64,000 bases of DNA from Spartobacteria bacterium (GTDB lineage Bacteria; Verrucomicrobiota; Verrucomicrobiia; Chthoniobacterales; UBA10450), in the NCBI GenBank assembly GCA_021325495.1, contig JAJPGZ010000012.1, forward strand, positions 120,131-184,130. The letters run 5' to 3'. Under the pieces are notes generated by a model that did no database searches, had not been told where the DNA came from, and worked only from the letters and a program-made list of their open reading frames with translations. A program made the position numbers and the translations under genes. This document shows, piece by piece, positions 182 to 38,519 of this stretch (its first letter is position 1; each line of letters starts with the position of its first letter).

Positions 182-213
182 GATTGTCGATCTTAGTGAT
201 TGTCGATCTTAGC
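182..213. repeat. Head-to-tail pair of the 10-mer TGTCGATCTT (185-194, 201-210), 16-bp period
   Basis: GATTGTCGATCTTAG occurs twice (182-196 and 198-212). The pair spans the stop of the adaptor gene and the 13-nt gap before the RND permease start. Confidence 0.9.
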
Positions 214-1935: not shown

Positions 1936-3387
1936 TCAACCCGGGTCGAGCGCGAACAAAACCAGGGTTTGATTCCGATAATCCTTCACCCGCTTCACCA
2001 CCCGCGGATGCTTGGGCGACCATTGCTCGCTCGACATCGCCTTTCGTTCCTCATGCGGCCGCGTCAGAAAATAATGCGCGTCGTAGGGCACTTCATCCAC
2101 GCTGCTCAGATATTGCACCGGCGCGAGCATGTAGAAAAAGAACGGCTGATAATTTGGATCGACTGCGTACAGCGTCTCGTTAGGCGGAACCGACGCGTTT
2201 ATTTCCGCCGCGATGTTCTTCACCTTTTCTTTCACGACGAACGAAAAGATCGGTAGACTGATCACGCCGATCGCCACGAACAGCCCGACAAACACCACGC
2301 TGACGCGCGACCAGACCGGCTCGGTCGATCGCAATTTCGCCGGCAAGGCGTACGCGTCACGCGTGAAGGCGAGCGCGAGTAGACAGCAAAACGGCACCAA
2401 AACCGGAAGGGTGTAGCGCGGAGCGGAGCCAGGAATTAATCCGACGACGACCAGCGGTAGCGCCGTGCTCCAGGCGAGTGCGCGCGCGAGATTGCGTTCG
2501 TTTTCGTCGGAAAATTTTTCGAAACGCAAAAACGGAACGACGAGAATCCACGGGAGAAAATAGAACAGCGCTCGCGGAATGGTGGTGAGCCATGCGCGCC
2601 ATCCGAAGAAGCCGCCGGTGATGCGGCCGGCGAATTGATTGTTCCATGTTTTCATCATGCGTTCGGTTTCGGTCGCATGCATGAAAGGAATGAGCCATGC
2701 CGCAAAGATCGACATCATCACGATGATGCCTAACAAATGCGCGGGATGAAATAGGACGCGCCATTGTCGATCTTTCCACAAAACAAAACCGACGAGCGCG
2801 TAGAAAAAAACCAGATGGGTCGGACCTTTCGCGAGCCAGCCGAGCCCGAGAAAAATCCACGGCACGGTCCACGTAAGCCAGGGCGAACGGCGCTCGCGCC
2901 ACCAGCTCAACCAAAAAATCATGGCCAGGCCGCAGAGCGAAATGTAAAGCGCTTCGATTTCGACCAGTCGCCCTTTTTCGAGCGTGCCGAAATTCGTTAG
3001 CCAAATCAGCGCCGCCATGGTCGATCCAGCGCCAAGCGTTTGTTTTGCGATTGTCACAAACGCGATCGCCACCGCTAAGATCGACAACACCGATGGAACA
3101 CGCGCGGTCCATTCATTGCGCACACGAAAGATTTTAAACGAACCGGCGATGAGCCAGTTAATCAGCGGCGGCTTGCGGTAATACGCTTCGCCACCTACTT
3201 GCGGCACGAGATAATTGCCGCTCTCGATCATCGCCATCGCGGGCAAAATGCGGCGGCCTTCTTCGCCTTTGATCTCGAACAACCCGAGCGCGGGCAGATA
3301 GATCGCGGCCCAGACAATTGCGACCAACAAGAGCGGTGGCAGACGCGACATGCGTTCGATTGTTGCGCACATGTCGATCTTGTCCAT
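1936..3387 (-). CDS. Polytopic membrane glycosyltransferase, ArnT/PMT (GT39/GT83-like) family
   Basis: 483-aa multi-TM ORF with an N-terminal YYRKPPLINWLIAG loop typical of lipid-linked sugar transferases. The start is at 3387 or 3351. Confidence 0.8.
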   Translation of the reverse strand: MDKIDMCATIERMSRLPPLLLVAIVWAAIYLPALGLFEIKGEEGRRILPAMAMIESGNYLVPQVGGEAYYRKPPLINWLIAGSFKIFRVRNEWTARVPSVLSILAVAIAFVTIAKQTLGAGSTMAALIWLTNFGTLEKGRLVEIEALYISLCGLAMIFWLSWWRERRSPWLTWTVPWIFLGLGWLAKGPTHLVFFYALVGFVLWKDRQWRVLFHPAHLLGIIVMMSIFAAWLIPFMHATETERMMKTWNNQFAGRITGGFFGWRAWLTTIPRALFYFLPWILVVPFLRFEKFSDENERNLARALAWSTALPLVVVGLIPGSAPRYTLPVLVPFCCLLALAFTRDAYALPAKLRSTEPVWSRVSVVFVGLFVAIGVISLPIFSFVVKEKVKNIAAEINASVPPNETLYAVDPNYQPFFFYMLAPVQYLSSVDEVPYDAHYFLTRPHEERKAMSSEQWSPKHPRVVKRVKDYRNQTLVLFALDPG

Positions 3388-3397
3388 GTCGATCTTG
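3370..3397. repeat. Head-to-tail pair of the 10-mer (3372-3381, 3387-3396), 15-bp period
   Basis: CATGTCGATCTTG occurs twice. On the minus strand each copy reads AAGATCGACATG, and one of the ATGs is the ORF start at 3387. Confidence 0.9.
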
Positions 3398-8334: not shown

Positions 8335-9034
8335 CGGCGTCCTGCTCGTCGACAAGGCCGATGGCATGACGTCGCACGACGTTGTTGCGATCGTTAGGCG
8401 CAAGCTCGACATCAAAAAAGTCGGCCACTGCGGCACGCTCGATCCGCTCGCGACCGGTTTACTTATTCTCACCATCGGTCGCGGCACGAAGATTCAGGAT
8501 CTGTTGATGAGCGAAGACAAAGTTTATGCCGGCACGCTTACGCTCGGTAGATCGACAAGTACGCAAGATCGACAAGGTGAAGTCGTCGAGACGCGCCCCG
8601 TTCCGGAATTGAACGAAGAACAAATTCGCGCCGCGTTCGAAAAGTTCCGCGGCGATTTTCATCAACTGCCGCCGATGGTCTCAGCTAAGAAACAGGGCGG
8701 CGTTCCGCTTTATAAACTCGCGCGTGAAGGCAAAACGGTGGAACGAGAGCCGCGTCTGGTCCATGTCTACGCCTACTCGATCGATAAGATCGCGTTGCCA
8801 GATATCGATTTTACGGTTCACTCGAGCAAAGGTTTTTACGTGCGCACCTACGCGCATGATATCGGCGAAGTCCTCGGCTGCGGCGCGCATTTGAAAAATC
8901 TGCGCCGGACCAAATCCGGACGTTTCGATGTCGATCTTGCAATTAGTGTCAGCGACATCCAAAGCAAGCCGCGCGACGAAATCGTCGGACGCATTCTAAG
9001 CTTGCCCCAAGTCTCCCGGATGCGCGGCGCATAA
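8312..9034 (+). CDS. truB: tRNA pseudouridine(55) synthase TruB
   Basis: ORF 8099..9034 trimmed to the ATG at 8312 (MSLTATPDGVLLVDKADGMTSHDVV). GTLDPLATGLL is present. Confidence 0.9.
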   Translation: MSLTATPDGVLLVDKADGMTSHDVVAIVRRKLDIKKVGHCGTLDPLATGLLILTIGRGTKIQDLLMSEDKVYAGTLTLGRSTSTQDRQGEVVETRPVPELNEEQIRAAFEKFRGDFHQLPPMVSAKKQGGVPLYKLAREGKTVEREPRLVHVYAYSIDKIALPDIDFTVHSSKGFYVRTYAHDIGEVLGCGAHLKNLRRTKSGRFDVDLAISVSDIQSKPRDEIVGRILSLPQVSRMRGA

Positions 9035-11942: not shown

Positions 11943-12011
11943 ATTTGTCCTTTGCGAGTGAGATGCGCCGAGAGCGCCTTTTGGATTCAAGAAAATCCGC
12001 CGCCTTAGCGC

Positions 12012-12037
12012 AAGATCGACAATCGCTAAGATCGACA
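12012..12037. repeat. Head-to-tail pair of AAGATCGACAAT (12012-12021, 12028-12037), 16-bp period
   Basis: Both copies lie in the 99-bp gap between the aceA stop (12042) and the next gene start (11942). Confidence 0.9.
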
Positions 12038-12041
12038 ATTC

Positions 12042-13306
<1,265 letters not shown>

Positions 13307-13310
<4 letters not shown>

Positions 13311-14917
13311 AAAAGCTCGTATGCCGGCAATGTCAGGAAGTCCGCGAAATGATCGTCGGTCGTGATCCTCTCAAACAATTCGGAAGCTAAGTTGTATTTG
13401 CGCTTACCGAACGTCGCATCGCCAATCTGCGTTTTGATTTTGCCGATCTCTTCCCGCAGCACATCGTGAAACAATTCCTTCGTCACTTTGCGTCCGTCGC
13501 TCAGCACGCCGCGCTTGTTGCGGATCCATTGCCAGACCTGCGCGCGCGAAATTTCCGCGGTGGCCGCGTCTTCCATCAGATTAAACAACGGCACCGCGCC
13601 GTGACCGCGCAGCCACGCCTCGAGATATTGCACGCCGACGCTCACGTTCTGCCGCAAACCGGCTTCCGTGATCGGCTCGTTAGGCCCGAAGTCGAGCAAA
13701 TCGGTTGCGCTAACATCGACATCGTCACGTTTCCGGTCGATCTGGTTCGGCGTTTTCATTCGGGCGTTAAAGGCATCCATCGCCAATTGCACCATTCCGG
13801 GATGCGCCACCCACGTTCCGTCGTGCCCATCGCTCGCTTCGCGCTCCTTGTCCGCGCGCACTTTCGCGAACGCTTCCTCGTTCGCCTTCTCATCGCCCTT
13901 CACCGGAATCTGCGCCGCCATTCCGCCCATCGCGAAAATGTTTCGGCGATGACAAGTCTTGATGCAGAGCAACGAATACGAATGCATGAAGTGCGTCGTC
14001 ATCGTCACGAGCGCGCGATCGGCCAGAATGAAATCTTCTTTCGCGCGAAACTTTTTGATGCAGGAAAAAATGTAATCCCAGCGACCGCAGTTGAGGCCGG
14101 CGGAGTGATCGCGCAATTCGTAAAGAATTTCATCCATCTCGAATGCGGCCGGAATAGTCTCGATCAAAACCGTCGCGCGAATCGTGCCGCGCGGAATGCC
14201 GAGATCGTCCTGCGCGAGATTGAAGACATCGTTCCAGATGCGCGCCTCGAGATGGCTCTCCATCTTCGGCAAATAAAAATACGGGCCGGTGCCGCGCTCG
14301 AGCAGCGCCCGCGCGTTGTGAAAAAAATACAAACCGAAGTCGAACAACGCACCGGAGACCGGCGCAAGATCGACATGTACATTTCGCTCGTCCAGGTGCC
14401 AGCCGCGCGGCCTAACGAGCAAGACGGCCGTGCCTTCGTTCAACTTGTATTCTTTTCCTTCCGCTGAGCGAAACGAGATCGTTCGCCGAATCGCATCGCG
14501 CAGATTGATCTGCCCCTCGACCATGTTCCGCCACGTCGGCGAATTCGCGTCTTCGAAATCGGCCATGAACATCTTCGCGCCAGAATTGAGCGCGTTGATC
14601 ACCATCTTGCGATCGGTCGGCCCGGTGATTTCGACGCGGCGATCGCGCATGTCGTTCGGAATCGCCGCGCACGTCCAATCGCCATCGCGAACGTGTTTCG
14701 TCGATGTCAAAAAATCGGGCATCTCACCCGCATCGAAGCGTGATTGTCGATCTTGTCGCGCTTTGAGCGCTTCATTGCGACGCGCTCCGAACTCCCGTTG
14801 CAACTTCGCCACAAACGCCATCGCATCCGGGGTGAGGATTTCCGCAAACTCCGGCGACACGTCGCTTTTGATCTCAACGCCTTTCGGCAAAGTCGCTTGC
14901 ACTTCCTTGTTTCGCAT
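13307..14917 (-). CDS. aceB: Malate synthase A
   Basis: 536-aa malate synthase A-like sequence ([25 protein letters not shown]). It overlaps aceA by 4 nt. Confidence 0.95.
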
Positions 14918-16164: not shown

Positions 16165-16773
16165 TCAACGCGCAAGCCATTCGCGGGCCGCGGCCACATC
16201 GCGAGGCGACAATTCGTGCCCGGCCGGCAACACTTCGAGGTCTATTTCGGCACCGGCGCTCTGGAATAACTGCGCCAACCGCTCTGCATTTGGCAGCGGA
16301 ATAATGGGATCGGAGCGACCGTTGCACATCAGAATGCGCCGGCCCGCCAGACTGGGAATCGCGATGTTCGACAATGGCACCATCGCGCGAAACAGAATCG
16401 CGGAAGGAAATTTCGCGCGGCCGAGTAACAGCATCGCCGCCGCGATATTCGCGCCATTCGAGTAACCGACTGCGACCAAATGGTCATTGTCGATCTTGTA
16501 TTCATTCGCGGCGTCTTCGACGAATTGGGCAAGCTCATGCGCGCGTTTGACGACGTCTTCCTCGTCGAACACGCCTTCGGCCAATCGCCGAAAAAATCGT
16601 GGCGCACCATGTTCCAGGATTTTGCCGCGCGGACTAAGTAGCGACGCGTCGGGATCAATGGCGCGGCCGAGTTCGATAAGATCGTCTTCGTTGCCGCCGG
16701 TGCCGTGCAGAAGCAGCAATGTGCGCTCCGATTTTCCCCTAACGAACCGGTGAATGAAGCCGAGATCGCTCAT
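16165..16773 (-). CDS. Alpha/beta hydrolase (phospholipase/carboxylesterase family)
   Basis: LLLLHGTGGNEDDL and the nucleophile elbow GYSNGA. Confidence 0.8.
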   Translation of the reverse strand: MSDLGFIHRFVRGKSERTLLLLHGTGGNEDDLIELGRAIDPDASLLSPRGKILEHGAPRFFRRLAEGVFDEEDVVKRAHELAQFVEDAANEYKIDNDHLVAVGYSNGANIAAAMLLLGRAKFPSAILFRAMVPLSNIAIPSLAGRRILMCNGRSDPIIPLPNAERLAQLFQSAGAEIDLEVLPAGHELSPRDVAAAREWLAR

Positions 16774-17723
16774 GGTCGATCTAACGAGATTGGCGGCAGG
16801 ATGCGCTCGATCTCGGCGCGATGCGGCTCGTATTGCGCGGGAAGTTTCAGCGATTCGCCGAGATGCTCGACCGGCTCGTCCGCCGTGAAGCCCGGACCGT
16901 CAGTCGCGATTTCGAAAAGGATTCCGTTCGGCTCGCGAAAGTAAATCGAGTGAAAATAAAAGCGGTCGATGATCGGCGTGACGTGCAAGCCAAGATCGAC
17001 AATCACGCTTCGCCACTGTTCCTGCTCGGCTTCGTCCGCGCAGCGGAACGCGATGTGGTGGACCGTCCCCGCGGAATTCAATCCGAATTCGCCGTCCGCT
17101 CGTTCGACGATGTCGATCTTGCCACTTGTCGATCTTTCATTCACGGCGAAGCGCCGCCGGCCGTTTTGTTCGTTCAGCAATTCGAACCCGAGCATCTGCA
17201 AAAGTTTTTCGCTGCGCCCGAAACGTTTCATTTCCAGGGTCGGCGCGTGGAAGCCGTGAATCGCGAATTCGCGCGGCACTCCGCTTTTGTAGGCAAGATC
17301 GACATCGTCGAGGTGCGGCGACGTGATTAATTCCACGAGCAACCCGTCCGGATCCGCGACCCGCAGAACTTCATCGCCGAAACGCGTCGCCGTCTGCTCG
17401 CACAAAACGCGTTGGTCTTTGAAGCGCGACTTCCAGAATTCGAGCGCGGTCGTCGGGATGGCAAAACTCGTCGCCGTGACCTGCCCCACTCCGCGACTGC
17501 CGCGACGCGCGCCCGGCCACGGGAAGAATGTGATCGCAGTCCCCGGTCGCCCAGTTCGATCGCCGAAATAGAAATGGTAAGACGAGGGATCGTCGAAGTT
17601 GACGGTGCGCTTCACGAAACGCAGGCCGAGCACACCGGCGTAGAAATCGAGATTGTGCTGCGGCTCGCTCGCGATGGCGGTGATATGGTGGATGCCGCGC
17701 AGTTTCACGCGTGAACTGATCAT
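16770..17723 (-). CDS. VOC-family ring-cleaving dioxygenase / glyoxalase-like protein
   Basis: ORF trimmed to the ATG at 17723 (MISSRVKLRGIHHITAIA). It has two VOC repeats; the second contains VHHIAFRC. Confidence 0.8.
   Translation of the reverse strand: MISSRVKLRGIHHITAIASEPQHNLDFYAGVLGLRFVKRTVNFDDPSSYHFYFGDRTGRPGTAITFFPWPGARRGSRGVGQVTATSFAIPTTALEFWKSRFKDQRVLCEQTATRFGDEVLRVADPDGLLVELITSPHLDDVDLAYKSGVPREFAIHGFHAPTLEMKRFGRSEKLLQMLGFELLNEQNGRRRFAVNERSTSGKIDIVERADGEFGLNSAGTVHHIAFRCADEAEQEQWRSVIVDLGLHVTPIIDRFYFHSIYFREPNGILFEIATDGPGFTADEPVEHLGESLKLPAQYEPHRAEIERILPPISLDRP
17111..17136. repeat. Head-to-tail pair of TGTCGATCTT (17111-17120, 17127-17136), 16-bp period, inside a CDS
   Basis: The two copies are translated in two different phases of the same gene (GKIDIVE and NERSTSG). 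Confidence 0.9.
17293..17320. repeat. 28-nt word GCAAGATCGACATCGTCGAGGTGCGGCG, repeated 27/28 at 18503-18530
   Basis: The second copy reads GCAAGATCGACATCGTCGATGTGCGGCG. The first copy lies antisense in the dioxygenase gene (HLDDVDLAY). The second lies sense in prmA (CKIDIVDVRRR). The first 19 nt recur at 49613-49631. Confidence 0.85.
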
Positions 17724-20885: not shown

Positions 20886-22436
20886 TTGCCTTCCGGTTAC
20901 CTCGCACTCATTCTTCACGCTCATTTGCCGTTCGTTAGGCATCCGGAGCACGAGCATTTTCTCGAAGAAGAATGGCTCTTTGAGGCGATAACGGAAACTT
21001 GCATCCCGTTGTTGCAAATGATGCAACGGCTAACGAACGAGCGGGTGCCGTTCAAGCTCACCATGTCGCTCACGCCGACGCTGTGCGCGATGCTCAATGA
21101 TGCGCTTTTGCGCGAACGCTACATTGAACATGTCGATCTTTTAATCGATCTCATGCAGCGCGAATGCGAGCGCGCGCATGGCGATCCGAAATTGTTCGAA
21201 CTTGCGCAGTTCTATTGCGCGCTGTTCGTCGAAAGCCGCCGCTTCTTCGTCGAAGAATGGAATTGCGATCTCATCGCAGCGTTCCGGAAAATGCGCGAGA
21301 CCGGTGCGCTTGAAATTATCGCTTCGGCCGCGACGCACGCGGTTCTGCCGCTGCATTCACGTGAGTCACAGCGGGCGCAGGTGTTGATCGGCCGTGATGT
21401 ACATGTCGATCTTTTCCATGTCGATCCAAGCGGATTTTGGTTACCCGAGTGCGCCTACGCGCCCGGCCTCGAAAACATTTTGCAGGAAGCCAACATCCGC
21501 TGGTTCGTTCTTGACGCGCATGGATTGATGTTTGGAAATCCGCGGCCGCGTCGTGCGATTTACGCGCCTTGCTTCACGCCGGCCGGCGTGGCTGCGTTCG
21601 CGCGCGACCGCGATTCGTCGCGCCAAGTTTGGAGCGCGACCGAAGGTTATCCGGGCGATCCGGCCTATCGCGAATTTTATCGCGACATCGGCTGGGAACT
21701 TCCGCTCGAACATCTCGGACCGGTCGCGCGCGGCATGCGGAAATTTTCCGGAGTGAAATATCACCGCATCACCGGCCGAGGTAAGATCGACAAGGAACTT
21801 TACGATCGCGACGCGGCCGAACGCGCGGCCGACGCGCACGCAACGCATTTTCTCGAACGCCGCCAATGGCAATTGGGCGAACTCGGCGACATTGATGTCG
21901 ATCCAATCATCGTCGCGCCGTTCGACGCGGAGTTGTTCGGGCATTGGTGGTTCGAAGGTCCGCGCTTTCTCGAATTGCTGATTCGCAAAGCCGCCAACCA
22001 GGATGAAGTTCGCCTAACGACGCCGAGTGAGTATCTCGCAGCGCATCCGACGCAACAGACCCTTGAGCCTGCGGCATCGACCTGGGGCGAAAATGGTCAC
22101 CTCGAAGTTTGGCTGCATCCGAGTAACGCGTGGATTTATCCGCGCGTCCACGCTGCGGCGAAGAAAATGACCGAGCTCACGCGTCGCGGCGGTGATGATC
22201 GCGTCCTCAGGCAACTCGCGCGCGAACTCTTGCTCGCGCAAGCGAGCGATTGGGCATTCCTGATCAAGAACGCGACGGCGAAAGAATACGCGGCGAAACG
22301 GACGCTCGACCACTTGGAACGATTCACGCGATTGCATGATCAATTTACAAATGGAGATGTCGATCTTGCATTCCTTTGCGAGATCGAATCGCGCGACAAT
22401 TTGTTTCCGAACGTGAACTGGCGATACTTCGCGTGA
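20886..22436 (+). CDS. GH57-family glycoside hydrolase (alpha-glucan branching-enzyme-like)
   Basis: The N-terminus ALILHAHLPFVRHPE is typical of GH57. 516 aa. Confidence 0.85.
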   Translation: MPSGYLALILHAHLPFVRHPEHEHFLEEEWLFEAITETCIPLLQMMQRLTNERVPFKLTMSLTPTLCAMLNDALLRERYIEHVDLLIDLMQRECERAHGDPKLFELAQFYCALFVESRRFFVEEWNCDLIAAFRKMRETGALEIIASAATHAVLPLHSRESQRAQVLIGRDVHVDLFHVDPSGFWLPECAYAPGLENILQEANIRWFVLDAHGLMFGNPRPRRAIYAPCFTPAGVAAFARDRDSSRQVWSATEGYPGDPAYREFYRDIGWELPLEHLGPVARGMRKFSGVKYHRITGRGKIDKELYDRDAAERAADAHATHFLERRQWQLGELGDIDVDPIIVAPFDAELFGHWWFEGPRFLELLIRKAANQDEVRLTTPSEYLAAHPTQQTLEPAASTWGENGHLEVWLHPSNAWIYPRVHAAAKKMTELTRRGGDDRVLRQLARELLLAQASDWAFLIKNATAKEYAAKRTLDHLERFTRLHDQFTNGDVDLAFLCEIESRDNLFPNVNWRYFA

Positions 22437-23139: not shown

Positions 23140-24462
23140 ATGGCTGCCACGCCTGACTTTCAACAAACGCTCGCCAAATCCGCCGGGTTCAGCGGGACGT
23201 CGCTGCACACCGGCGAAAAAGTTTCGCTCAAATTGCAGCCGGCGCCGGCGGACCACGGAATCAAATTCAAGCGCAAGGATCTCGCGGACGAACCGACGAT
23301 TGACGCGAAGATCGACAATCTCAAAACGGTTGAACGCGCGACCACCATCGGCGAAGGCGCGGTGCGCGTGCACACGGTCGAGCACGTGCTGGCGGCGTTG
23401 ACCGGCATGGGCGTGGACAACGCCATCATCGAGATGGACGCGAACGAGCCGCCCATCGGCGACGGCAGCGCAAAACCCTATGTCGATCTTATCAATCGCG
23501 CCGGCCTAACGATGCAGGAAACGCCACGAAAATCTTTCGAAGTGCGCGAGCCGATGCACATCGAAACGAAATCGGGATCGATGCTGGTGTTGTTGCCGGA
23601 TAAAAACTTTCGCATCTCTTGCACGCAAGCCGGGCCGAACAATCGCTTCTCGCAGTACATGTCGATCGAAGTGACGCCGGCGATGTTCGAAAAGGAAATC
23701 GCGAGCGCGCGCACGTTTGTTTACTACGAAGACGTCGAAGCGTTGATGGGCAAGAACCTGATCAAGGGCGGCAGTCTCGAGAATGCGATCGTGATTCGCG
23801 ACAACAGTGTGTTGAGCAAGGAGCCGATGCGGTTCGAGGACGAGTTCGTTAGGCACAAAATTCTCGACATCATCGGCGATCTTTCCCTCATCGGTCAGCG
23901 CATTCGCGGGCATCTCATTGCGGTCAAGCCGGGACATGGCGCGAATGCCGAGCTCGCACGCGCGATTGCGAAAGAACAGAAGCGGCGCGACGCGATGGCG
24001 ATCCCGCGACCGTTGCCGCCGGGTCAGGGTGGATTGAGCGCCGAAGATATCTTGTCGATCTTGCCGCATCGTTATCCGTTTTTGATGGTCGATCGGATCA
24101 TCGGTTTCGAAGGCGACACCAAATGCATCGGTCTTAAAACGGTGACGATGAACGAACCGTTTTTCCCGGGGCATTTCCCCGGACATCCGGTAATGCCGGG
24201 CGTTTTGCAGGTGGAAGCGATGGCGCAGGTCGCGAGCATTCTCCTGTTCAAATTGTCGAAGTCGACTAACCGCATCGGTTATTTCATGAGCGCGGACGAT
24301 GTGAAATTTCGAAAGCCGGTTTTTCCCGGTGACACGATTTACATCCACGCCGAGCTCACGAAAAATCGCGGCGACCGTCTGGCAAAAGCGAAATGTCACT
24401 GCGTCGTCAACGATGCGGTTGTGTCCGAAGGTGAATTGATGTTCACGTTTCTCGATCGATGA
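23140..24462 (+). CDS. lpxC: Bifunctional UDP-3-O-acyl-GlcNAc deacetylase / 3-hydroxyacyl-ACP dehydratase (LpxC-FabZ fusion)
   Basis: N-terminal LpxC (HTVEHVLAAL, FVRHKILDIIGDL) and a C-terminal FabZ hotdog domain (LPHRYPFLMVDRI, FPGHFPGHPVMPGVL). Confidence 0.9.
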   Translation: MAATPDFQQTLAKSAGFSGTSLHTGEKVSLKLQPAPADHGIKFKRKDLADEPTIDAKIDNLKTVERATTIGEGAVRVHTVEHVLAALTGMGVDNAIIEMDANEPPIGDGSAKPYVDLINRAGLTMQETPRKSFEVREPMHIETKSGSMLVLLPDKNFRISCTQAGPNNRFSQYMSIEVTPAMFEKEIASARTFVYYEDVEALMGKNLIKGGSLENAIVIRDNSVLSKEPMRFEDEFVRHKILDIIGDLSLIGQRIRGHLIAVKPGHGANAELARAIAKEQKRRDAMAIPRPLPPGQGGLSAEDILSILPHRYPFLMVDRIIGFEGDTKCIGLKTVTMNEPFFPGHFPGHPVMPGVLQVEAMAQVASILLFKLSKSTNRIGYFMSADDVKFRKPVFPGDTIYIHAELTKNRGDRLAKAKCHCVVNDAVVSEGELMFTFLDR

Positions 24463-25238
24463 GCGACGTCAAAGTTCATCCGACGGCAATTGTCGATCTT
24501 AGCGCAAAGTTAGGAGCCGGAACGGAAGTCGGGCCGTATTGCATCGTCGGCGCGAACATTTCGTTAGGCGAAAATTGCTGGCTGCAACATCACGTCACGC
24601 TGCAAGGCCCGATGAAGGCGGGGGCGCGAAATAAATTTTACGCGTATTGCTCGATCGGCCAACAAACGCAGGACCTGAAATACAAAGGCGAGCCGACGTA
24701 TTTGGAAATCGGCGACGAAAATACTTTTCGCGAGTTCGTGACCGTGAATCGCAGCACGACGGCCGAAGGAAAGACGCGCATCGGTCATCGTGGAAATTTT
24801 CTCGCGTATTCGCACATCGGTCATGACTGCGTCGTCGGCGATGAGGTCGTGTTCTCAAACAACGGCACGCTCGCCGGTCACGTCACCGTCGGCGACAACG
24901 CAGTCATGGGCGGCCTAACGGCGGTGCATCAATTCTGTCGGCTTGGTCGATTCGCCATCACCGGCGGCTGCTCGAAAATCGTGCAGGACGTTCCGCCGTT
25001 CATGATCGCGGATGGAAATCCGGCGGAAGTTCGCGGGATCAATGTCGTCGGGCTCGAACGCAAAAATTTTTCGGCGGAAAAAATCAAACTGATCAAGGAA
25101 GCGTTTCGTTTGATCTACCGCTCGAAGCTGAACACGCGGCAGGCGATTGAAGCGGTGCGAAAAGATTTACCGGCAGCGGAAGAGATCACTCAGATCATCG
25201 AATTCATCGAGCAAAGCGAGCGCGGTATCATTCGTTAG
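24459..25238 (+). CDS. lpxA: Acyl-ACP--UDP-N-acetylglucosamine O-acyltransferase
   Basis: Left-handed beta-helix hexapeptide repeats. 259 aa. It overlaps lpxC-fabZ by 4 nt. Confidence 0.9.
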   Translation: MSDVKVHPTAIVDLSAKLGAGTEVGPYCIVGANISLGENCWLQHHVTLQGPMKAGARNKFYAYCSIGQQTQDLKYKGEPTYLEIGDENTFREFVTVNRSTTAEGKTRIGHRGNFLAYSHIGHDCVVGDEVVFSNNGTLAGHVTVGDNAVMGGLTAVHQFCRLGRFAITGGCSKIVQDVPPFMIADGNPAEVRGINVVGLERKNFSAEKIKLIKEAFRLIYRSKLNTRQAIEAVRKDLPAAEEITQIIEFIEQSERGIIR

Positions 25239-25261
25239 ATCGACATCGTGCAAGATCGACA
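25236..25261. repeat. Head-to-tail pair TAGATCGACA (25236-25245) / AAGATCGACA (25252-25261), 16-bp period
   Basis: The pair fills the 24-bp gap between convergent genes. The TAG of the first copy is the lpxA stop. Confidence 0.85.
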
Positions 25262-25262
25262 A

Positions 25263-26813
25263 TTACTGCGTGGATCCGGCGAGCTGGTGTTCGATTTCGT
25301 GCAGAATCGGCGCCGCCGGCGACGCCGAAACAATGCGCAAGGTGCTGCGGACAAGATCGAGCGCGCGTTTGCGCCGGTCTGATTTCACGAGCGCGTCGCA
25401 TTCTTCGATCACAACCCGAATGATGTCGTCGCGATTCGTGTAAGTCGCGCGCGCCTGCTGAAACAAACTTGTCGCCGCGACGAAATTTTTGTCGCGCGCT
25501 TCCATTCCACCGAGGTCTTCGAGCATGATCGCATTGCGCGCGCGCGTCGCCGCCTGCCGCGCAAGAGCGCGATATTCGGCCGGCGGCCGATTTACGTTTT
25601 TGACCGCGAAGTCATGATAAAATTTCCAATCACCGGCGGCGCGCGGCGTTTCACGCGGCTGATCGTCCGCCAGCCACGACGCATACGGGCGGTAAAGCGG
25701 ATCGCCCACGGCGACGTTCATCCACGACAGCGCCTGCAGCGACATGTAAACGCTTTCGGCAAACGTGAAACCGTGCAGCAATCGATCATTCAAAATATCG
25801 AACTGCGAACTCAACTGCAGATACGGTTCGTAAACATTGCCCACACTCGCGGCCGCGCCGCGCATGAGCAGCGGCGCCACCCAATTCGCATTCGGGTCGC
25901 GCAACGTCGCGGCGCTGAATGAATGAATGTGAGCCGCCACCGCGCCCGGAACGAAATGAAAGTTCGGATCATTAAACGGTCCGGCCGCCTGGCCGGTGTA
26001 CCATCCGTAATACAAGGCGCAATTCGTCATCGGGTATCCCGCCGGAAAAACGCCGGGCAGTTCATCCAGCACCACCGGCACGCCCACTTTGCGCAGATCA
26101 GTCGCGACGTTCGTTAACCAAGTCTCGCCTTGCGCCGCGGGCGCAGTATTATGCGAAGTATCGACATAGCCCCGGCCCCACAACCCGTTTTTCTCCGCGG
26201 CGATCCCGTCGGTAATCATTCGCCTAACGACCGCCGCGGTCGGCGCATCGAGACGGCAGGCGAGCAGCATCACCGGACCTTGGAATTCGCGAATCGCGCG
26301 AAAACTTTTGAAATACGGATTCGGGATCGCGCCCGAAATTTGATGCGAGCTCGTTGATAAGATCGACAATTCCGAATCGACCGACGCCGCGTTCTGATCA
26401 CCCACCGGGCCGCCTTCGACTTTATCGCCATCGTACGGCGCAGTGACCGGCCGAATTTTCAGCGGCACGCCTTTCATCACCGCCGCGAATAGAATCGCCG
26501 TGCTATCGATCGACTCGACGCCATCGGCGCGCCGGTGCGTTCGCCACCAGCCGCGCTCGTGAAAAATTTTTCGGAGCGGCTCGGCGATGGTGCTGTCGTA
26601 CTCCGCCCGATCGATTTCTTCCGTGGTCGGACAGGTCAAGGCCACGAGATGATCGCGGGGAATTGCACGCTGCTGCATGTAAAACTTCGCCAGATCGGCT
26701 GAGTCGGGCGCGGCTTTGTTGTAGATGACGATGGTCTCTTCGGCGAGCTGCTCAGCGTGCGCGGCGGTCGCGCAGAGCAAGATCGACAATAGACAAGATC
26801 GACAACGACTCAT
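25263..26813 (-). CDS. Secreted hypothetical protein
   Basis: 516 aa with signal peptide MSRCRSCLLSILLCATAAHA. I cannot name a family with confidence. Confidence 0.6.
   Translation of the reverse strand: MSRCRSCLLSILLCATAAHAEQLAEETIVIYNKAAPDSADLAKFYMQQRAIPRDHLVALTCPTTEEIDRAEYDSTIAEPLRKIFHERGWWRTHRRADGVESIDSTAILFAAVMKGVPLKIRPVTAPYDGDKVEGGPVGDQNAASVDSELSILSTSSHQISGAIPNPYFKSFRAIREFQGPVMLLACRLDAPTAAVVRRMITDGIAAEKNGLWGRGYVDTSHNTAPAAQGETWLTNVATDLRKVGVPVVLDELPGVFPAGYPMTNCALYYGWYTGQAAGPFNDPNFHFVPGAVAAHIHSFSAATLRDPNANWVAPLLMRGAAASVGNVYEPYLQLSSQFDILNDRLLHGFTFAESVYMSLQALSWMNVAVGDPLYRPYASWLADDQPRETPRAAGDWKFYHDFAVKNVNRPPAEYRALARQAATRARNAIMLEDLGGMEARDKNFVAATSLFQQARATYTNRDDIIRVVIEECDALVKSDRRKRALDLVRSTLRIVSASPAAPILHEIEHQLAGSTQ
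26779..26804. repeat. Head-to-tail pair of AAGATCGACAA (26779-26788, 26795-26804), 16-bp period
   Basis: Both copies lie inside the signal-peptide coding region and are read in two phases (RCRSC and LLSILL). Confidence 0.9.
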
Positions 26814-31489: not shown

Positions 31490-31500
31490 AAGATCGACAA

Positions 31501-32152: not shown

Positions 32153-33499
32153 GTGCTGAACTACATCTGGCTTGCACTGGTTTTGCTCGCGGTCGCGATT
32201 GGCGGTTGGAACGATCATCTCAAAGAGGTGACCAACGGCGCGCTCGACGGCGCGAAGACCGCAGTAACGATCGCTCTCGGTTTGGTCGGGGTGATGGCGC
32301 TTTGGCTCGGCGTCATGCGATTAGCCGAGCGCGCCGGCCTTGTGCAAAGAATCGCGCGCGGGCTGCGGCCGTTAATGGAGCGATTATTTCCCGACGTTCC
32401 GCCGGACCATCCGGCGATGGGTTCGATGCTGATGAACATGGCGGCGAACATGCTCGGGCTCGGCAATGCCGCGACGCCGCTCGGATTGCGCGCGATGCGC
32501 GATCTGGAATCACTCAATCCGCGCCCGGGCGTAGCGTCGAACGCGATGTGCACTTTTCTCGCGATGAATACCGGCTCGGTGCAACTCGTGCCGGCGACGG
32601 CGATTGCGATTCTGGTTTCGGCGGGATCGACTCGACCAACATCGATTGTGGGGACGGCGCTGATGTCGACGCTGTGCGCGACGACGGTCGCGCTGATTTC
32701 GGTGAAGATTTTTGAGAAGTTGTCGATCTTTCAACCACGCGGCGCGTCCGGCGTTGAAAGATCGACAACAGCGCATCCGCGCGTAATCGCGACTGGCGAA
32801 AACGTGTTCGACGATCTCTCGCTCGGCCATCCACCGTCGATGCGTCCGGCGATGTGGGGTTCGTTCGCGATCCTTGCCCTTCTCGTTCTCTTCATCGTTT
32901 TTTTCCTTCGCATCGTCACGCCCGATCTCGTCGGCGGTTCGTTGCCGAGCGATGCGCCGCCAAACATTTTCGTCCGCACCGTGAATGGATTGTCGATCTT
33001 AGCGATTCCGTTTTTGCTCAGCTTCTTCCCGCTCTACGCCGCGGCGCGCGGGGTGAAGGTGTACGAGGAATTCGTCGAAGGCGCGAAGGAAGCGTTCCCG
33101 GTGATGCTGAGGATCATTCCGTTTCTCGTCACCATGCTGGTGGCAATCGGAATGTTCAAAGGCGCGGGTGGAATCGACATTCTCACGCGGATTTTAAATC
33201 CGATTTTAACGCCGCTGCATTTCCCGCCCGATCTGGTGCCGCTGTCGTTGATGCGGCCATTGAGCGGCAGCGCAACACTCGCGTTGCTTACCGACATCGT
33301 GCATCGGCTCGGCCCGGATAACATTGTCAGCTTGATGGCGGCGACGATTTACGGAAGCACGGAGACGACGTTCTACGTCGCGGCGGTTTACTTCGGCTCG
33401 GTCGGGATCAAACAGACGCGGCACGCGATTCCGGCCGGACTGCTCGCCGACCTCGCTGGCATCGTCGCGTCGGTCATCATCTGTCGCGCGGTGTTGTAA
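32153..33499 (+). CDS. Nucleoside-recognition-domain membrane protein (fused SpmA/SpmB-like halves)
   Basis: Two Gate-type halves are joined by a linker that contains the 17-bp inverted repeat at 32719-32769. Confidence 0.75.
   Translation: MLNYIWLALVLLAVAIGGWNDHLKEVTNGALDGAKTAVTIALGLVGVMALWLGVMRLAERAGLVQRIARGLRPLMERLFPDVPPDHPAMGSMLMNMAANMLGLGNAATPLGLRAMRDLESLNPRPGVASNAMCTFLAMNTGSVQLVPATAIAILVSAGSTRPTSIVGTALMSTLCATTVALISVKIFEKLSIFQPRGASGVERSTTAHPRVIATGENVFDDLSLGHPPSMRPAMWGSFAILALLVLFIVFFLRIVTPDLVGGSLPSDAPPNIFVRTVNGLSILAIPFLLSFFPLYAAARGVKVYEEFVEGAKEAFPVMLRIIPFLVTMLVAIGMFKGAGGIDILTRILNPILTPLHFPPDLVPLSLMRPLSGSATLALLTDIVHRLGPDNIVSLMAATIYGSTETTFYVAAVYFGSVGIKQTRHAIPAGLLADLAGIVASVIICRAVL
32719..32769. 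repeat. Perfect 17-bp inverted repeat GTTGTCGATCTTTCAAC (17-nt spacer) GTTGAAAGATCGACAAC
   Basis: The arms are 32719-32735 and 32753-32769. Each contains the 10-mer. The repeat is in frame in the inter-domain linker (KLSIFQPRGASGVERSTT). Confidence 0.9.
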
Positions 33500-33523
33500 G
33501 ATCGACAATTCGTTAGATCGACA
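33498..33523. repeat. Head-to-tail pair AAGATCGACA (33498-33507) / TAGATCGACA (33514-33523), 16-bp period
   Basis: Intergenic. The first copy overlaps the TAA stop at 33497-33499. The spacer ATTCGT plus the following TAG forms a TCGTTAG word-B-like core. Confidence 0.85.
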
Positions 33524-34773: not shown

Positions 34774-34798
34774 TGTCGATCTTACGATTGTCGATCTT
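34774..34798. repeat. Head-to-tail pair of TTGTCGATCTT (34774-34783, 34789-34798), 15-bp period
   Basis: The pair fills most of the 39-bp gap between convergent genes. Confidence 0.9.
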
Positions 34799-35275
34799 TC
34801 ATTCGCCGAGTTCGGGAATCGTGAGGCCGGAATTGCTCACACGCACGAGCTGCCAGTCCCACGGTTTACCGGACATCTGACGCCATTCCAAATCGAACGG
34901 GGTGGAGATGGAATTCACGCGCGCTTCCACTTCGCTCATGAGTTCATTGGCATCGCCCCGAATGGTGATGCGCGCCTGCCAATGCTGGCCGAAAGCAAGC
35001 GGTTCCGCGACGCTGCAGCGGACATTGCGCAGATAACGAAAGACCTCGCGCGCACGCTCAAGCAAACGGTCGCGGTCGTTGTGCCATTGGTCCTGGTAAT
35101 CGGGGGCGACGAATTCGCCCACGCGTTTCCAATCCTTGTCCTCAAGGGCGTGCAGGAAATGTTCGGAGTGCAATTGGATCTGGTGTTGCGGTTGCCAAAG
35201 GCGCAGAAGCCACGCGCCAATGATCAAAGCGAAGAGCAAACCGCCGATGAATGAATTGCGACAGGAGATGGTCAT
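34799..35275 (-). CDS. Membrane-anchored hypothetical protein
   Basis: 158 aa with an N-terminal TM helix. I recognise no family. Confidence 0.5.
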   Translation of the reverse strand: MTISCRNSFIGGLLFALIIGAWLLRLWQPQHQIQLHSEHFLHALEDKDWKRVGEFVAPDYQDQWHNDRDRLLERAREVFRYLRNVRCSVAEPLAFGQHWQARITIRGDANELMSEVEARVNSISTPFDLEWRQMSGKPWDWQLVRVSNSGLTIPELGE

Positions 35276-36269: not shown

Positions 36270-37352
36270 ATGGCTCGCATTGACGCCTTCTTCAAATTGA
36301 TGTCCGAGCAAAAGGCTTCGGACCTCCACCTCGCCACCGGCAACCCGCCCATGCTGCGGATTAACGGCGATCTGGTTCGTGTCGATTTTCCGCCGCTGCA
36401 GAACGATGAGCTGAAAGCGATGGTCTACGAGATCGCGCCCGAGGGTAAGATCAAAAACTTCGAAGAATCGCTCGATGTCGATTTTGGCTACGAAGTGCCG
36501 GGCGTGGCGCGTTATCGCGCGAATTTTTTCCAACAGAAGAACGGTATTTCAGCCGTGTTCCGTTTGATTCCATCGACCGTTTTGACGGTCGACGATCTCG
36601 GATTGCCGCCGGTGCTGAAGAAATTTCCGATGTTGAAAAAGGGTCTCGTGCTCGTGACCGGTCCGACCGGTTCCGGCAAATCAACGACGCTCGCGGCGAT
36701 GATGGACTACGCGAACCTGCAACGGCAGGACCACATCATCACGGTGGAAGATCCGATTGAGTTTGTGCATCGCAGCCAGAACTGTCTCGTGCAACATCGC
36801 GAAGTCGGTGTGCACACGCGCTCATTTGCGGCGGCGCTGCGCGGTTCATTGCGCGAAGATCCTGACATCATTCTCGTCGGTGAAATGCGCGATTTGGAAA
36901 CGATTGAGCTCGCGCTCACGGCGGCCGCCACCGGTCACCTTGTCTTCGGAACTTTGCACACATCGAGCGCATCGAAGGCGGTCGATCGAATCATCGACGT
37001 TTTCCCGACGAACCAACAGAACCAGATTCGCACGACGCTGGCTGAATCGCTCAAGGGCGTGATCGCGCAGAACCTTTTCAAGACTATCGACAAACCTGGA
37101 CGCGTCGCCGCGCTGGAAATCCTCGTGGTCGATACCGCGATCGCGAACCTCGTGCGCGAAGGCAAGACGCACCAAATCCCGGGCATGATTCAGGTCGGCA
37201 AAAAGAAAGGTAACCAGCCGCTCGACGACGCGATCATGGATCTCTTGCGCAAGATGCGCATCAGCCCCGAGGAAGCGTACGACAAAGCGATCGATAAGAA
37301 AAGATTCCGCCAGTTTTTGAAGGAGCCGCCGGCTGACGCCACGGAGGAGTAA
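36270..37352 (+). CDS. pilT: Type IV pilus retraction ATPase PilT
   Basis: Walker A GPTGSGKST, Walker B ILVGEMRD and His box GHLVFGTLHT. 360 aa. Confidence 0.9.
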   Translation: MARIDAFFKLMSEQKASDLHLATGNPPMLRINGDLVRVDFPPLQNDELKAMVYEIAPEGKIKNFEESLDVDFGYEVPGVARYRANFFQQKNGISAVFRLIPSTVLTVDDLGLPPVLKKFPMLKKGLVLVTGPTGSGKSTTLAAMMDYANLQRQDHIITVEDPIEFVHRSQNCLVQHREVGVHTRSFAAALRGSLREDPDIILVGEMRDLETIELALTAAATGHLVFGTLHTSSASKAVDRIIDVFPTNQQNQIRTTLAESLKGVIAQNLFKTIDKPGRVAALEILVVDTAIANLVREGKTHQIPGMIQVGKKKGNQPLDDAIMDLLRKMRISPEEAYDKAIDKKRFRQFLKEPPADATEE

Positions 37353-38519
37353 ATGCGCATTCCCGACCTCGATAAAATTTTGTCCGCGATGCTGAAGACC
37401 TACGACGGCATCTCCGACATCAACTTTTCCGTTGGCCATCCTTTGCAGGTGGAAGACTACGGCGAGCTCAAACCCGTCTATGTCGATCCGTCAATCGAAG
37501 CGCTCACGCCCTACCAGACCGAACAGATCGCGCTCACCATCATGCAGGGGAATCGGCGATTGATTTACGATTATCTTACCGGCGGTTCGTGCGATTGCAG
37601 CTACTCGTTAGGCGACGAAGCGCGTTTCCGCGTCAGTGTTTTCCGCCAACAGGGAAATTTCTCAGTCGTTCTGCGAAAACTCGAAGCCAGTGTGCCGACA
37701 GTCGATTCACTTCACTTGCCGCCGATCTTTCGTGAAGTCGCAAAAGAAAAAACCGGCCTCGTTCTTGTCACCGGCGCGACCGGCAGCGGCAAGACCACGA
37801 CGCTCGCGGCCATTCTCAACGAGATCAATACGACGTTGCCCGTGCACGTCATCACACTGGAGGACCCGATCGAATTCGTTCATCCGAAGCTCAAAGCGAC
37901 CTTCAACCAGCGCGAACTCGGACACGACTTCAACAACTACCCGAACGGCCTGCGCGCCGCCTTGCGTCAGGCCCCGAAAGTCATTCTGGTCGGCGAAATG
38001 CGCGACCGGGCCACGGTCGAAGTCGCACTCATGGCTGCGGAGACCGGTCACTTGGTTTTGAGCACGTTGCACACGGTCGATGCCGGCCAGGCCATTAACC
38101 GTATGCTCGGGCTCTTCTCGTTAGGGGAAGAAAAGCAATTGCGCATTCGTCTGGCGGATACGTTGCGTTACATCATCAGCCAGCGACTCGTCCCGAAACA
38201 GGGCGGCGGACGCCAATTACTCAGCGAAATCATGGGCGCCAATCTCCGCACTCGCGAAGCCATCGCGCTGGGAGAAGGCGAACATCGCAGCTTTTACGAA
38301 ATCATTGAAGCAAGCTCGCCATTCGGTTGGATGACGTTCGACCAATCGATCATCAGCGCATACGAAAACGGATACATCAGCGAAGAAACGGCTAAGCTTT
38401 ATGCCTCGCGCAAAGGTCGCATCACGCGCGGCATCGATATCATCCAGAAAACACGCGGCATCGATACGGAGCTTGATTCCGGTCTGCGCCTCGACCTGCC
38501 CGAGAACGCTTTCCGCTAA
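37353..38519 (+). CDS. PilT/PilU-family type IV pilus ATPase (paralogue)
   Basis: GATGSGKTT, ILVGEMRD and GHLVLSTLHT. It starts 1 nt after the pilT stop. Confidence 0.85.
   Translation: MRIPDLDKILSAMLKTYDGISDINFSVGHPLQVEDYGELKPVYVDPSIEALTPYQTEQIALTIMQGNRRLIYDYLTGGSCDCSYSLGDEARFRVSVFRQQGNFSVVLRKLEASVPTVDSLHLPPIFREVAKEKTGLVLVTGATGSGKTTTLAAILNEINTTLPVHVITLEDPIEFVHPKLKATFNQRELGHDFNNYPNGLRAALRQAPKVILVGEMRDRATVEVALMAAETGHLVLSTLHTVDAGQAINRMLGLFSLGEEKQLRIRLADTLRYIISQRLVPKQGGGRQLLSEIMGANLRTREAIALGEGEHRSFYEIIEASSPFGWMTFDQSIISAYENGYISEETAKLYASRKGRITRGIDIIQKTRGIDTELDSGLRLDLPENAFR

Follow-up and report, generated by a model that had tools for sequence, protein, structure and literature searches.

To our knowledge, only two families, both proteobacterial, have firmly established DNA uptake sequences, each known uptake-sequence species carries a single such word, and the origin of these words is debated. 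In the Neisseriaceae, the DUS, which is read by the minor pilin ComP, is a non-palindromic word of 10-12 bp that occurs about once per kb on both strands, within as well as between genes; its consensus is very sharp, it is common to related species and it is enriched at gene ends. Close pairs of fixed geometry are common among its copies (PMC3388099, PMC3630211, PMC3868556), and in Neisseria a direct-repeat DUS and a single DUS give similar transformation (PMC3388099). In the Pasteurellaceae, the USS combines a short core with weaker, one-sided flanking preferences. Copies of the USS in genes are found where the protein tolerates them and bring amino-acid changes with them (PMC2817400), and their accumulation fits a drive model (PMC1939737). 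The highly iterated palindrome HIP1 (GCGATCGC) of cyanobacteria is lineage-specific and extremely abundant, contains GATC, is found in every frame and shows hyper-conservation at orthologous sites, and its role is still unexplained (bioRxiv 10.64898/2026.06.24.733823). It has a length of 8 bp and serves as a recognition site for known methylases. At the level of individual pairs, response-regulator operators and plasmid iterons consist of head-to-tail repeats whose centres stand at a set distance, with a tolerance of about 1 bp. Such fixed-distance head-to-tail repeats are the classic signature of tandem protein binding. They comprise few sites per genome, are located at promoters or origins and have periods of about 10-11 or 21-22 bp.

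Here, we analysed a 64-kb stretch of DNA (the window) that carries 123 exact copies of the asymmetric 10-bp word AAGATCGACA (reverse complement TGTCGATCTT), some of them arranged as head-to-tail doublets. By analogy, the neisserial DUS and the pasteurellacean USS appear as the closest systems and HIP1 as the closest non-uptake analogue. With the DUS, AAGATCGACA shares length, lack of palindromy, density, the occurrence on both strands within and between genes, the sharp consensus, the presence in related species, the enrichment at gene ends and the close pairs of fixed geometry. It differs from the DUS in phylum and sequence and in being accompanied by a second abundant word, and its likeness to an uptake sequence lies at the level of sequence only. 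About half of the copies in Neisseria lie in inverted repeats able to act as terminators, whereas the pairs described here are strictly direct, 15-16 bp apart, form no hairpins and involve about 6-10% of copies. The USS is alike in its short core with weaker one-sided preferences and in the amino-acid changes that accompany coding copies; its flanks are AT-rich and helically phased and its pairs are inverted, whereas the pairs here are direct. HIP1 is matched in lineage specificity, extreme abundance, the GATC content and conservation at orthologous sites, but not in the asymmetry of the word or the head-to-tail doublets. In contrast to operators and iterons, the doublets (about ten per 64 kb) belong to a genome-wide word that occurs mostly as single coding copies. 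AAGATCGACA is a strand-symmetric, genome-wide word of one soil Chthoniobacterales-like Verrucomicrobiota clade, and it is maintained and has multiplied as a DNA sequence, not for a peptide that it encodes. Our literature searches returned no account of AAGATCGACA, no uptake sequence from Verrucomicrobia and nothing on competence in Ca. Udaeobacter.

Results

The window forms part of the 664-kb metagenomic contig k141_1207321 (ENA ERZ27279688), from which its gene calls were taken; 62 of them were verified as open reading frames and give a coding share of 95%. From length alone, about 0.1 copies (0.12) of AAGATCGACA would be expected in 64 kb. With 123 copies, or about 2 per kb, it is the commonest 10-mer of the window by a wide margin. 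The word is very sharply defined, since just 28 one-mismatch versions occur in the window. Across 500 kb of motif-rich sequence, 720 exact copies compare with 224 one-mismatch copies (about 3:1 when summed), a ratio that is much lower in Haemophilus; mismatches are least tolerated at positions 4-7 (ATCG) and most tolerated at the 5' AAG. Flank preferences are weak, with S-G-C upstream and A or T immediately downstream; the one-sided preferences that resemble those of the USS are W (+10), C (+14) and T (+16/+18). No conservation of the flanks was found beyond about 3 bp upstream and these weak downstream preferences.

Copies wholly inside genes, on which the first-pass annotation of this DNA had been silent, make up 80% of the total (99 of 123) and use five of the six frames, 46 copies in sense and 53 in antisense orientation. 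Sense copies encode KID (25 copies), DRQ/H (11) or RST (10), antisense copies encode VDL (39) or SI(L/F) (14), and the antisense frame encoding CRS is not used (0 copies). The non-coding DNA, 5% of the window, contains the other 24 of the 123 copies, either entirely or across a gene edge, which corresponds to an enrichment of about 4-fold. Five copies provide a TAA stop, a T being directly followed by AAGATCGACA, and some gene gaps of 10-20 bp are filled almost exactly by the word. In the most constrained genes (nusA, infB, pilT, pilU), copies are rare. Given its presence on both strands and in multiple frames and its enrichment in non-coding DNA, AAGATCGACA functions at the level of DNA and represents neither a peptide nor an RNA nor a mobile element. 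A mobile element or an interspersed repeat of the MITE, REP or BIME type was rejected because the flanks are not conserved and 80% of the copies lie in genes, and an RNA or structured element because Rfam detected only a tRNA and the word is found in either orientation with respect to genes. A protein-level repeat was rejected as well, as the two copies of a 16- or 17-bp pair differ in reading frame and the proteins that contain them have no relation to one another. AAGATCGACA shows no strand polarity in the window: 56 copies on the plus strand and 67 on the minus strand are interspersed in orientation, and a GC-skew switch is absent. A polar motif of the Chi/KOPS type was rejected for this lack of strand bias.

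The first-pass annotation had listed nine pairs of the word at a fixed spacing. All nine were verified in position, spacing (15-16 bp in eight cases, 17 bp in one) and direct orientation, and a tenth doublet was found at 21404/21419, with a spacing of 15 bp and TGGATCGACA as partner (Table 1). Six of the ten are exact-exact and four have a near-exact partner (TAGATCGACA or TGGATCGACA), and all are head-to-tail. That no inverted pair exists at this spacing was likewise borne out for 15-17 bp in the window; the nearest inverted case to this range is divergent, spaced 13 bp and has one mismatch. As a null model, 99 copies were placed at random in coding DNA and 24 at random in intergenic or gene-edge positions in 5000 simulations. 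Direct pairs at 15-17 bp reached a mean of 0.44, and none of the simulations (0/5000) arrived at the six exact pairs observed (Poisson P ~7e-6), which rules out a chance origin of the doublets. The previously given expectation of 0.7 pairs turned out to be the figure for either orientation, to be replaced by 0.44 for direct pairs when gene structure is considered; the excess itself stands. An assembly artefact is ruled out as the same doublets are present in independent ENA, NCBI, JGI and Logan assemblies.

Table 1 Doublets of AAGATCGACA and type IV pilus genes in the 64-kb window
Feature	Position	Strand	Spacing (bp)	Location and composition
Doublet	185..210 (185-194, 201-210)	-	16	End of RND adaptor gene (193-1557)
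Doublet	3372..3396	-	15	5' end of PMT_2 gene (1936-3387), spacer before nusA
Doublet	8548..8574	+	17	In truB; TAGATCGACA 8548-8557 and exact copy 8565-8574
Doublet	12012..12037	+	16	Between isocitrate lyase stop (12042) and DUF6249 gene start (11942)
Doublet	17111..17136	-	16	In glyoxalase-family gene (16770-17708); copies in different frames
Doublet	21404..21428	-	15	In GH57 gene; TGGATCGACA 21419-21428 and exact copy 21404-21413
Doublet	25236..25261	+	16	In 24-bp gap between convergent genes
Doublet	26779..26804	+	16	Between TIGR03790-family gene start and metallo-beta-lactamase-fold gene stop
Doublet	33498..33523	+	16	Exact copy overlaps TAA stop of gene 32153-33499
Doublet	34774..34798	-	15	Gap between convergent genes
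PilT/PilU-family type IVa pilus retraction ATPases, two genes	36270..38519	+		TIGR01420, PF00437

Seven of the ten doublets lie between genes or on gene ends and three within genes. The tendency noted before is thus correct in direction, and its count of six out of nine becomes seven out of nine by gene calls. Doublets occur in every gene-orientation context, including convergent gene ends. Copies in doublets represent about 6-10% of all copies, single copies about 90%. Beside the single copies, hidden degenerate partners show a slight excess at +/-15 only. In pairs 31-60 bp apart, no degenerate middle copies were seen, and contigs of the same species (99.9-100% identity) revealed no motif polymorphism.

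To cover related genomes, a one-genome-per-species scan for the pair pattern was performed, and its matches were mainly soil MAGs labelled Verrucomicrobiota, Chthoniobacterales or Spartobacteria. Judging from these labels, the window probably belongs to the Udaeobacter-like group. The sample of relatives comprised 63 motif-rich 8-kb blocks (436 kb, 597 copies), each ascertained by one pair, with 1-2 copies of AAGATCGACA per kb. Direct pairs in these blocks number 52 at 15 bp, 25 at 16 bp and none at 17 bp, a distance that the search pattern allowed, and every other distance up to 100 bp is represented by 0-2 pairs. Pairs beyond the ascertaining one of each block provide a fairer count, which amounts to 14 and is far above that of any other distance. 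Close inverted pairs are rare, with three in the 436 kb. A spacing histogram had been proposed as a check on the geometry; run on about 0.5 Mb of relatives, it retains the peak at 15-16 bp and loses the 17-bp class. Three syntenic loci (L183, L184 and L185; 44 kb, 69 copies) were fetched via a neighbouring protein and not chosen for pairs, and these unbiased loci contain two exact pairs and further pairs with variant partners. According to a codon-usage classifier of coding regions, which was correct for 127 of 129 test regions from its own training genes, about 64% of doublets are located at gene boundaries compared to about 33% of single copies, in all gene-orientation contexts. Among species pairs that share doublets, many keep both copies while the spacers diverge. 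A scan of viral contigs yielded three low-density matches, one of which belongs to an organism of 67% GC and is hence uninformative. The word GAATGACGAA, present in some relatives, was considered as a dialect of AAGATCGACA and rejected as it is a 7-bp tandem repeat.

Conservation of individual copies was assessed at the three syntenic loci. L183 (86% nucleotide identity) exactly keeps 11 of 12 window copies, against a neutral expectation of 2.8, and shares 11 of its own 11 copies with the window. For L184 (77% identity), 23 of 38 window copies are exactly kept (neutral 2.7) and 23 of the relative's 24 copies are shared; for L185 (78% identity), the respective values are 30 of 42 (neutral 3.5) and 30 of 31. 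Exact conservation thus applies to 60-92% of copies at 77-86% identity versus 7-23% expected, about 8-fold over the neutral expectation. The relatives BP_776 and cluster4_bin.70 keep five of six and two of two copies, respectively; together with L183, they are the closest available relatives (81-86% nucleotide identity). Since the copy sets are nested, copies appear to be rarely lost and more of them were gained in the window lineage, the direction of change being assigned by parsimony without a formal outgroup. Between a copy that is not conserved and its orthologous counterpart, 4-6 of ten positions are changed, with about two expected from background divergence, so that copy gains represent clustered change, sometimes with amino-acid replacement. 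Coding uptake sequences likewise entail amino-acid changes upon copy gain (PMC2817400). The density of AAGATCGACA is 1.3-2.5 per kb in motif-bearing relatives and spans 0-2.5 per kb in the family as a whole. In the nusA-truB region of more distant relatives (74-81% identity) it drops to 0-0.6 copies per kb, and the expansion of the word is therefore lineage-specific. The first-pass annotation, which focused on the pairs, did not mention this character of a lineage-specific, genome-wide, hyper-conserved tag, which implies that a different kind of protein has to be sought.

The same comparisons allowed us to follow single doublets. Four second copies (8548, 17111, 26779, 34774) were added beside older ones (8565, 17127, 26795, 34789), and three of the 15 copies that are new relative to L184 sit 15-16 bp from an older copy, with about 0.04 expected. 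In truB, the downstream copy encodes a conserved QDRQ and is old and widespread; the upstream copy is restricted to the window lineage, in which seven substitutions and no indel turned GT(S/T)TS into GRSTS. In the glyoxalase-family gene, copy 17127 is kept in L184 and L185, and copy 17111 is new in the window lineage (4-6 substitutions, no indel). Both copies of 21404/21419 are kept in L184 and L185, including the TGG (Trp codon) variant. At 25236, TAGATCGACA supplies the TAG stop of gene 24459-25238 and is followed by the exact copy at 25252; L183 keeps both with a changed spacer, and they are missing in L184 and L185, in which the gap measures 6-7 bp by gene calls. The doublet 26779/26795 is identical in L183, and L184 and L185 carry only the equivalent of 26795. 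At 33498/33514, the partner TAGATCGACA at 33514 lies upstream of a Pyr_redox gene, and both L184 and L185 retain the doublet, TAG variant included; the spacing is 16 bp in the window and 15 bp in the two relatives, which means that both registers are acceptable at one site. Copy 34789 abuts the TGA stop of gene 34799-35275, and the pair 34774/34789 is kept in L185, L184 having only the copy beside the stop. At the doublet 185..210, the upstream copy encodes the C-terminal KIDNH of the RND adaptor and the downstream copy overlaps the TAA stop of the gene. This doublet is identical in BP_776 within a region of 82% overall nucleotide identity. It has the same arrangement on the minus strand, AAGATCGACA-atcgct-AAGATCGACA, as is found on the plus strand at 12012-12037. 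The doublet 3372/3387 is missing at the orthologous spot in distant relatives.

A second, unrelated hyper-abundant word, GCCTAACGA, is present in 55 copies and forms no doublets. Its copies are nested and conserved like those of AAGATCGACA, and it is missing from L184 and younger. Uptake sequences are characterised by one dominant word, and the window departs from this in that GCCTAACGA is also abundant. A fixed relation between the two words was rejected as their cross-distances look random.

The two PilT/PilU-family genes of the window match TIGR01420 with 452.6 and 351 bits (cut-off 319), and PF00437 also matches; no pilin genes adjoin them. Hence, a retractile type IV pilus motor is present in the organism, which is not proof of competence. 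The genes comEC, comEA, dprA and pilQ were not found in the sequence covered here.

Discussion

We tentatively interpret AAGATCGACA as an uptake-sequence-like genomic tag with a putative reader that binds as two head-to-tail units, a reading to which we assign slightly less than an even chance. In length and density, occurrence on both strands, action at the DNA level and maintenance at orthologous sites, the word behaves at the sequence level like an uptake sequence. The existence of a reader protein, its tandem binding and its membership in DNA uptake are what we infer from these patterns. A sequence-specific DNA-binding protein, most plausibly part of a type-IV-pilus DNA-uptake apparatus, would read AAGATCGACA. 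Alleles bearing the word would be transmitted preferentially by uptake and homologous recombination, and copies would build up in a ratchet-like manner wherever the sequence tolerates them. Doublets would represent composite sites on which two reader units are placed head-to-tail in adjacent 15- or 16-bp registers, and the reader would prefer them to a single copy. Beside an existing copy, another one in exact register would be fixed far more often than elsewhere, and the short unconstrained stretches between genes would make this easiest.

Site-by-site selection for a local function can hardly maintain thousands of exact 10-mers in genes, and a transmission or conversion bias would thus be needed; the best-known bias of this type is DNA uptake followed by recombination (PMC1939737, PMC2817400). 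If each copy were of independent benefit, second copies should appear at any distance, and the spike of direct pairs at 15-16 bp hence points towards a composite two-unit site. The sole alternative for this spike would be a templated mutational process, of which we saw no evidence in the sequences analysed. Cooperative binding of two protein units, as proposed earlier, is consistent with the doublet observations and is the reading that appears to fit them best. Tandem binding is favoured because of the sharp restriction to 15 and 16 bp in strict head-to-tail orientation, because both copies are conserved while spacers diverge, and because new copies are born in excess exactly 15-16 bp from older ones. 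The accompanying argument from a distance of about 1.5 helical turns does not by itself count as evidence. At 1.5 turns, the two sites face opposite sides of the DNA, an unusual geometry for simple dimer contacts. The other option offered at the time, an element with an internal direct repeat, does not fit, as nothing is conserved outside the two 10-mers and single copies lack element-like flanks.

Several observations weigh against the uptake reading. The presence of two words argues for caution, whereas uptake-sequence species carry one each. A purely stepwise drive is hard to reconcile with gains that change 4-6 of ten positions and with the scarcity of one-mismatch intermediates. An advantage of doublets would be without precedent, given the similar performance of direct-repeat and single DUS in Neisseria, and doublets account for only about 6-10% of copies. 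A more far-reaching version, which we consider possible but doubtful, is that soil Chthoniobacterales-like Verrucomicrobiota tag their own DNA with AAGATCGACA, which would be read as 15-16 bp head-to-tail units, spread by a ratchet and later joined by GCCTAACGA. This would constitute either the first DUS system outside the Proteobacteria or a new, motif-installing biased conversion.

If AAGATCGACA is uptake-sequence-like, it would add a third lineage and an independent natural experiment in a group of soil bacteria that ranks among the most abundant and the hardest to work with. Close relatives in this group show graded densities of the word, and its gains are nested and dated. The doublets would constrain the putative reader to a head-to-tail arrangement in a 15-16 bp register with T or TGG tolerated at the 5' end, and their geometry would limit structural models and could serve as a basis for the design of probes and competitors. 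In addition, AAGATCGACA may be used as a sequence marker for the clade in metagenomes and is a candidate aid for DNA delivery into genetically intractable relatives. If the reader is not an uptake protein, a biased conversion that writes 10-bp words into genes despite amino-acid changes would be even more surprising.

Such a reader outside DNA uptake is the most serious rival, although we regard it as unlikely. It would have the same tandem geometry and could be a methyltransferase, a nicking or repair enzyme or a chromosome-organising protein that biases repair or gene conversion in a manner suggested for HIP1, with the doublets reflecting the packing of two enzyme units. AAGATCGACA contains GATC and TCGA and has ATCG as its least tolerant core, and the later appearance of GCCTAACGA fits successive enzyme specificities more easily than two uptake receptors. 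New copies resemble multi-base patches and not stepwise changes, and HIP1 is likewise hyper-conserved and methylase-recognised with an unexplained function (bioRxiv 10.64898/2026.06.24.733823). However, AAGATCGACA is not palindromic, and a gene for a DNA methyltransferase or a Vsr-like protein is absent from the window. Asymmetric sites of Type IIG, III and I methyltransferases comprise 5-7 bp, which the ten fully specified bases of AAGATCGACA exceed. Known repair biases lead to modest over-representation, in contrast to the approximately 1000-fold value observed here, and we know of no motif-writing repair system of this kind. The rival keeps its weight due to GCCTAACGA, the patch-like gains, the direct-repeat result in Neisseria and the fact that, in the window, competence machinery beyond PilT/PilU was not seen.

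A second rival accepts maintenance of the single word and treats the doublets as a functionless by-product, in which slippage duplicates a 15-16 bp unit, the flanks decay and single-copy maintenance preserves both copies. We consider this improbable as a general explanation, while tandem duplication accounts for a minority of doublets. The clearest example is 182-212, the sole tandem repeat detected by TRF among the doublets (period 16, 100% match). The units of 12012/12028 are identical at 14 of 16 positions in register, and a relative (L025) carries a three-copy array at 383/399/415 with identical spacers, a perfect 16-bp tandem repeat. Some copy gains also coincide with short insertions. 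Among 16-bp pairs, 31% have at least five of six flank matches versus 9.5% under the null, and only some of these pairs look like slippage products. Pairs at 15 bp, which are the majority, show no excess of flank identity (2.61 in-register matches versus 2.43 under the null), so their flanks resemble each other only as much as flanks of randomly chosen single copies do. This agrees with the earlier view that the doublets are not simply recent tandem duplications; the accompanying statement that flanks differ everywhere except at 182-212 is largely correct and needs 12012/12028 as a further exception. Identity of the whole unit thus holds for 182-212, holds partly for 12012-12037 and fails for the 15-bp pairs overall. 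In contrast to slippage repeats, and contrary to a single duplicated 16-bp unit with identical flanks, most doublets share only the 10-mer, arise without length change and come in two spacings. Both coding doublets with a recent second copy (8548/8565 and 17111/17127) gained it by substitutions without any change in length. Moreover, slippage does not explain why the units always measure 15-16 bp, with none of 12-14 or 17-30 bp, and a 16-bp duplication within a gene shifts the reading frame.

That the doublets are ordinary direct-repeat operators of a transcription factor at gene boundaries, with the single copies as unrelated background, is very improbable: it would suit the seven of nine listed pairs (seven of ten doublets) between genes or at gene ends, the position of 33498/33514 immediately ahead of a conserved block that precedes the Pyr_redox gene and the pair near the RND adaptor gene, but doublets occur in all orientation contexts including promoterless convergent ends, three lie inside genes, the same 10-mer is present thousands of times genome-wide in mostly coding positions, and the flanking genes are functionally unrelated. 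The pair near the RND adaptor gene is present even in L124, a relative with very few other copies. The doublet 12012/12028 is located at a difference in gene order, with the isocitrate lyase operon sitting elsewhere in relatives.

Doublets at variable and conserved positions

Two head-to-tail copies of the 10-mer AAGATCGACA, spaced 15-16 bp apart, form what we call a doublet. The intergenic doublet 12012/12028 lies at a junction where the gene order of the window differs from that of its relatives: here, an isocitrate lyase-malate synthase operon precedes the DUF6249 gene, while the same spot in the compared loci (L103-L177) is occupied by a tRNA gene and a conserved block that resembles a promoter. 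Another doublet, with 16-bp spacing, was found about 3.4 kb upstream of nusA in six relatives (L118, L133, L127, L124, L142 and L153), where it lies in the gene downstream of the RND adaptor gene, within the stretch that encodes a poorly conserved N-terminus. It occurs even in relatives where AAGATCGACA is otherwise scarce; L124 has just two copies, and these make up the doublet. Degenerate forms occur in L102, L103, L128 and L136, and two partial matches (DR..RSTS) were already present at this position in the ancestral sequence. Relatives at the nusA locus (L107, L153, L128, L109) also carry 7-bp tandem repeat arrays, (GAATGAC)n, which show up as the frequent 10-mer GAATGACGAA and have no relation to the AAGATCGACA doublets. 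The viral-labelled contig L181 (IMG/VR UViG_3300028590_000081; 67% GC) holds five copies of AAGATCGACA within 3 kb, one 16-bp doublet among them, and none in its other 8 kb.

Distribution among and between genes

The density of AAGATCGACA appears to track protein constraint. With seven copies (4.2 per kb), recN is the densest gene, very few copies are found in nusA and infB, and none in pilT and pilU of the window. Enrichment in the DNA-repair gene recN recalls the bias reported for DNA uptake sequences (DUS) of Neisseriaceae, a likeness that concerns a single gene and is not significant. AAGATCGACA often provides the stop codon, as a preceding T completes TAA, and the variant TAGATCGACA yields TAG. 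Tiny intergenic gaps can be filled almost exactly by AAGATCGACA, e.g. the 11-bp gap at 31490.

Coordinates of features in the window and in L181
Feature	Sequence	Position
recN	window	27623-29296
pilT and pilU	window	36270-38519
Stop codons in AAGATCGACA or TAGATCGACA	window	193-195(-), 9032-9034, 33497-33499, 36192-36194, 38517-38519, 25236-25238
Gap filled by AAGATCGACA	window	31490-31499
Compared region with the operon upstream of DUF6249 gene	window	11943-14917
GCCTAACGA, examples	window	675, 4766, 7339, 11385, 63672
AAGATCGACA cluster	L181	2135-5021

A second abundant word and short-word composition

A second hyper-abundant word, GCCTAACGA, occurs 55 times in the window (35 on +, 20 on -), with 51 copies inside genes and four frames used. 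No doublets exist among these copies, and their position relative to AAGATCGACA is not constant. Conservation in the syntenic loci is nested, comprising 4/6 copies in L183 and 6/14 in L185, which shares six of its own seven copies with the window. Since GCCTAACGA is absent from L184, although AAGATCGACA is present there, it seems to be a word of the same type that arose more recently.

GATC (607) and TCGA (754) exceed their base-composition expectation in the window (239 each) 2.5-3 times, and only 123 of the 607 GATC sites lie within AAGATCGACA. GTCGAC is under-represented (12 versus about 20-62 expected).
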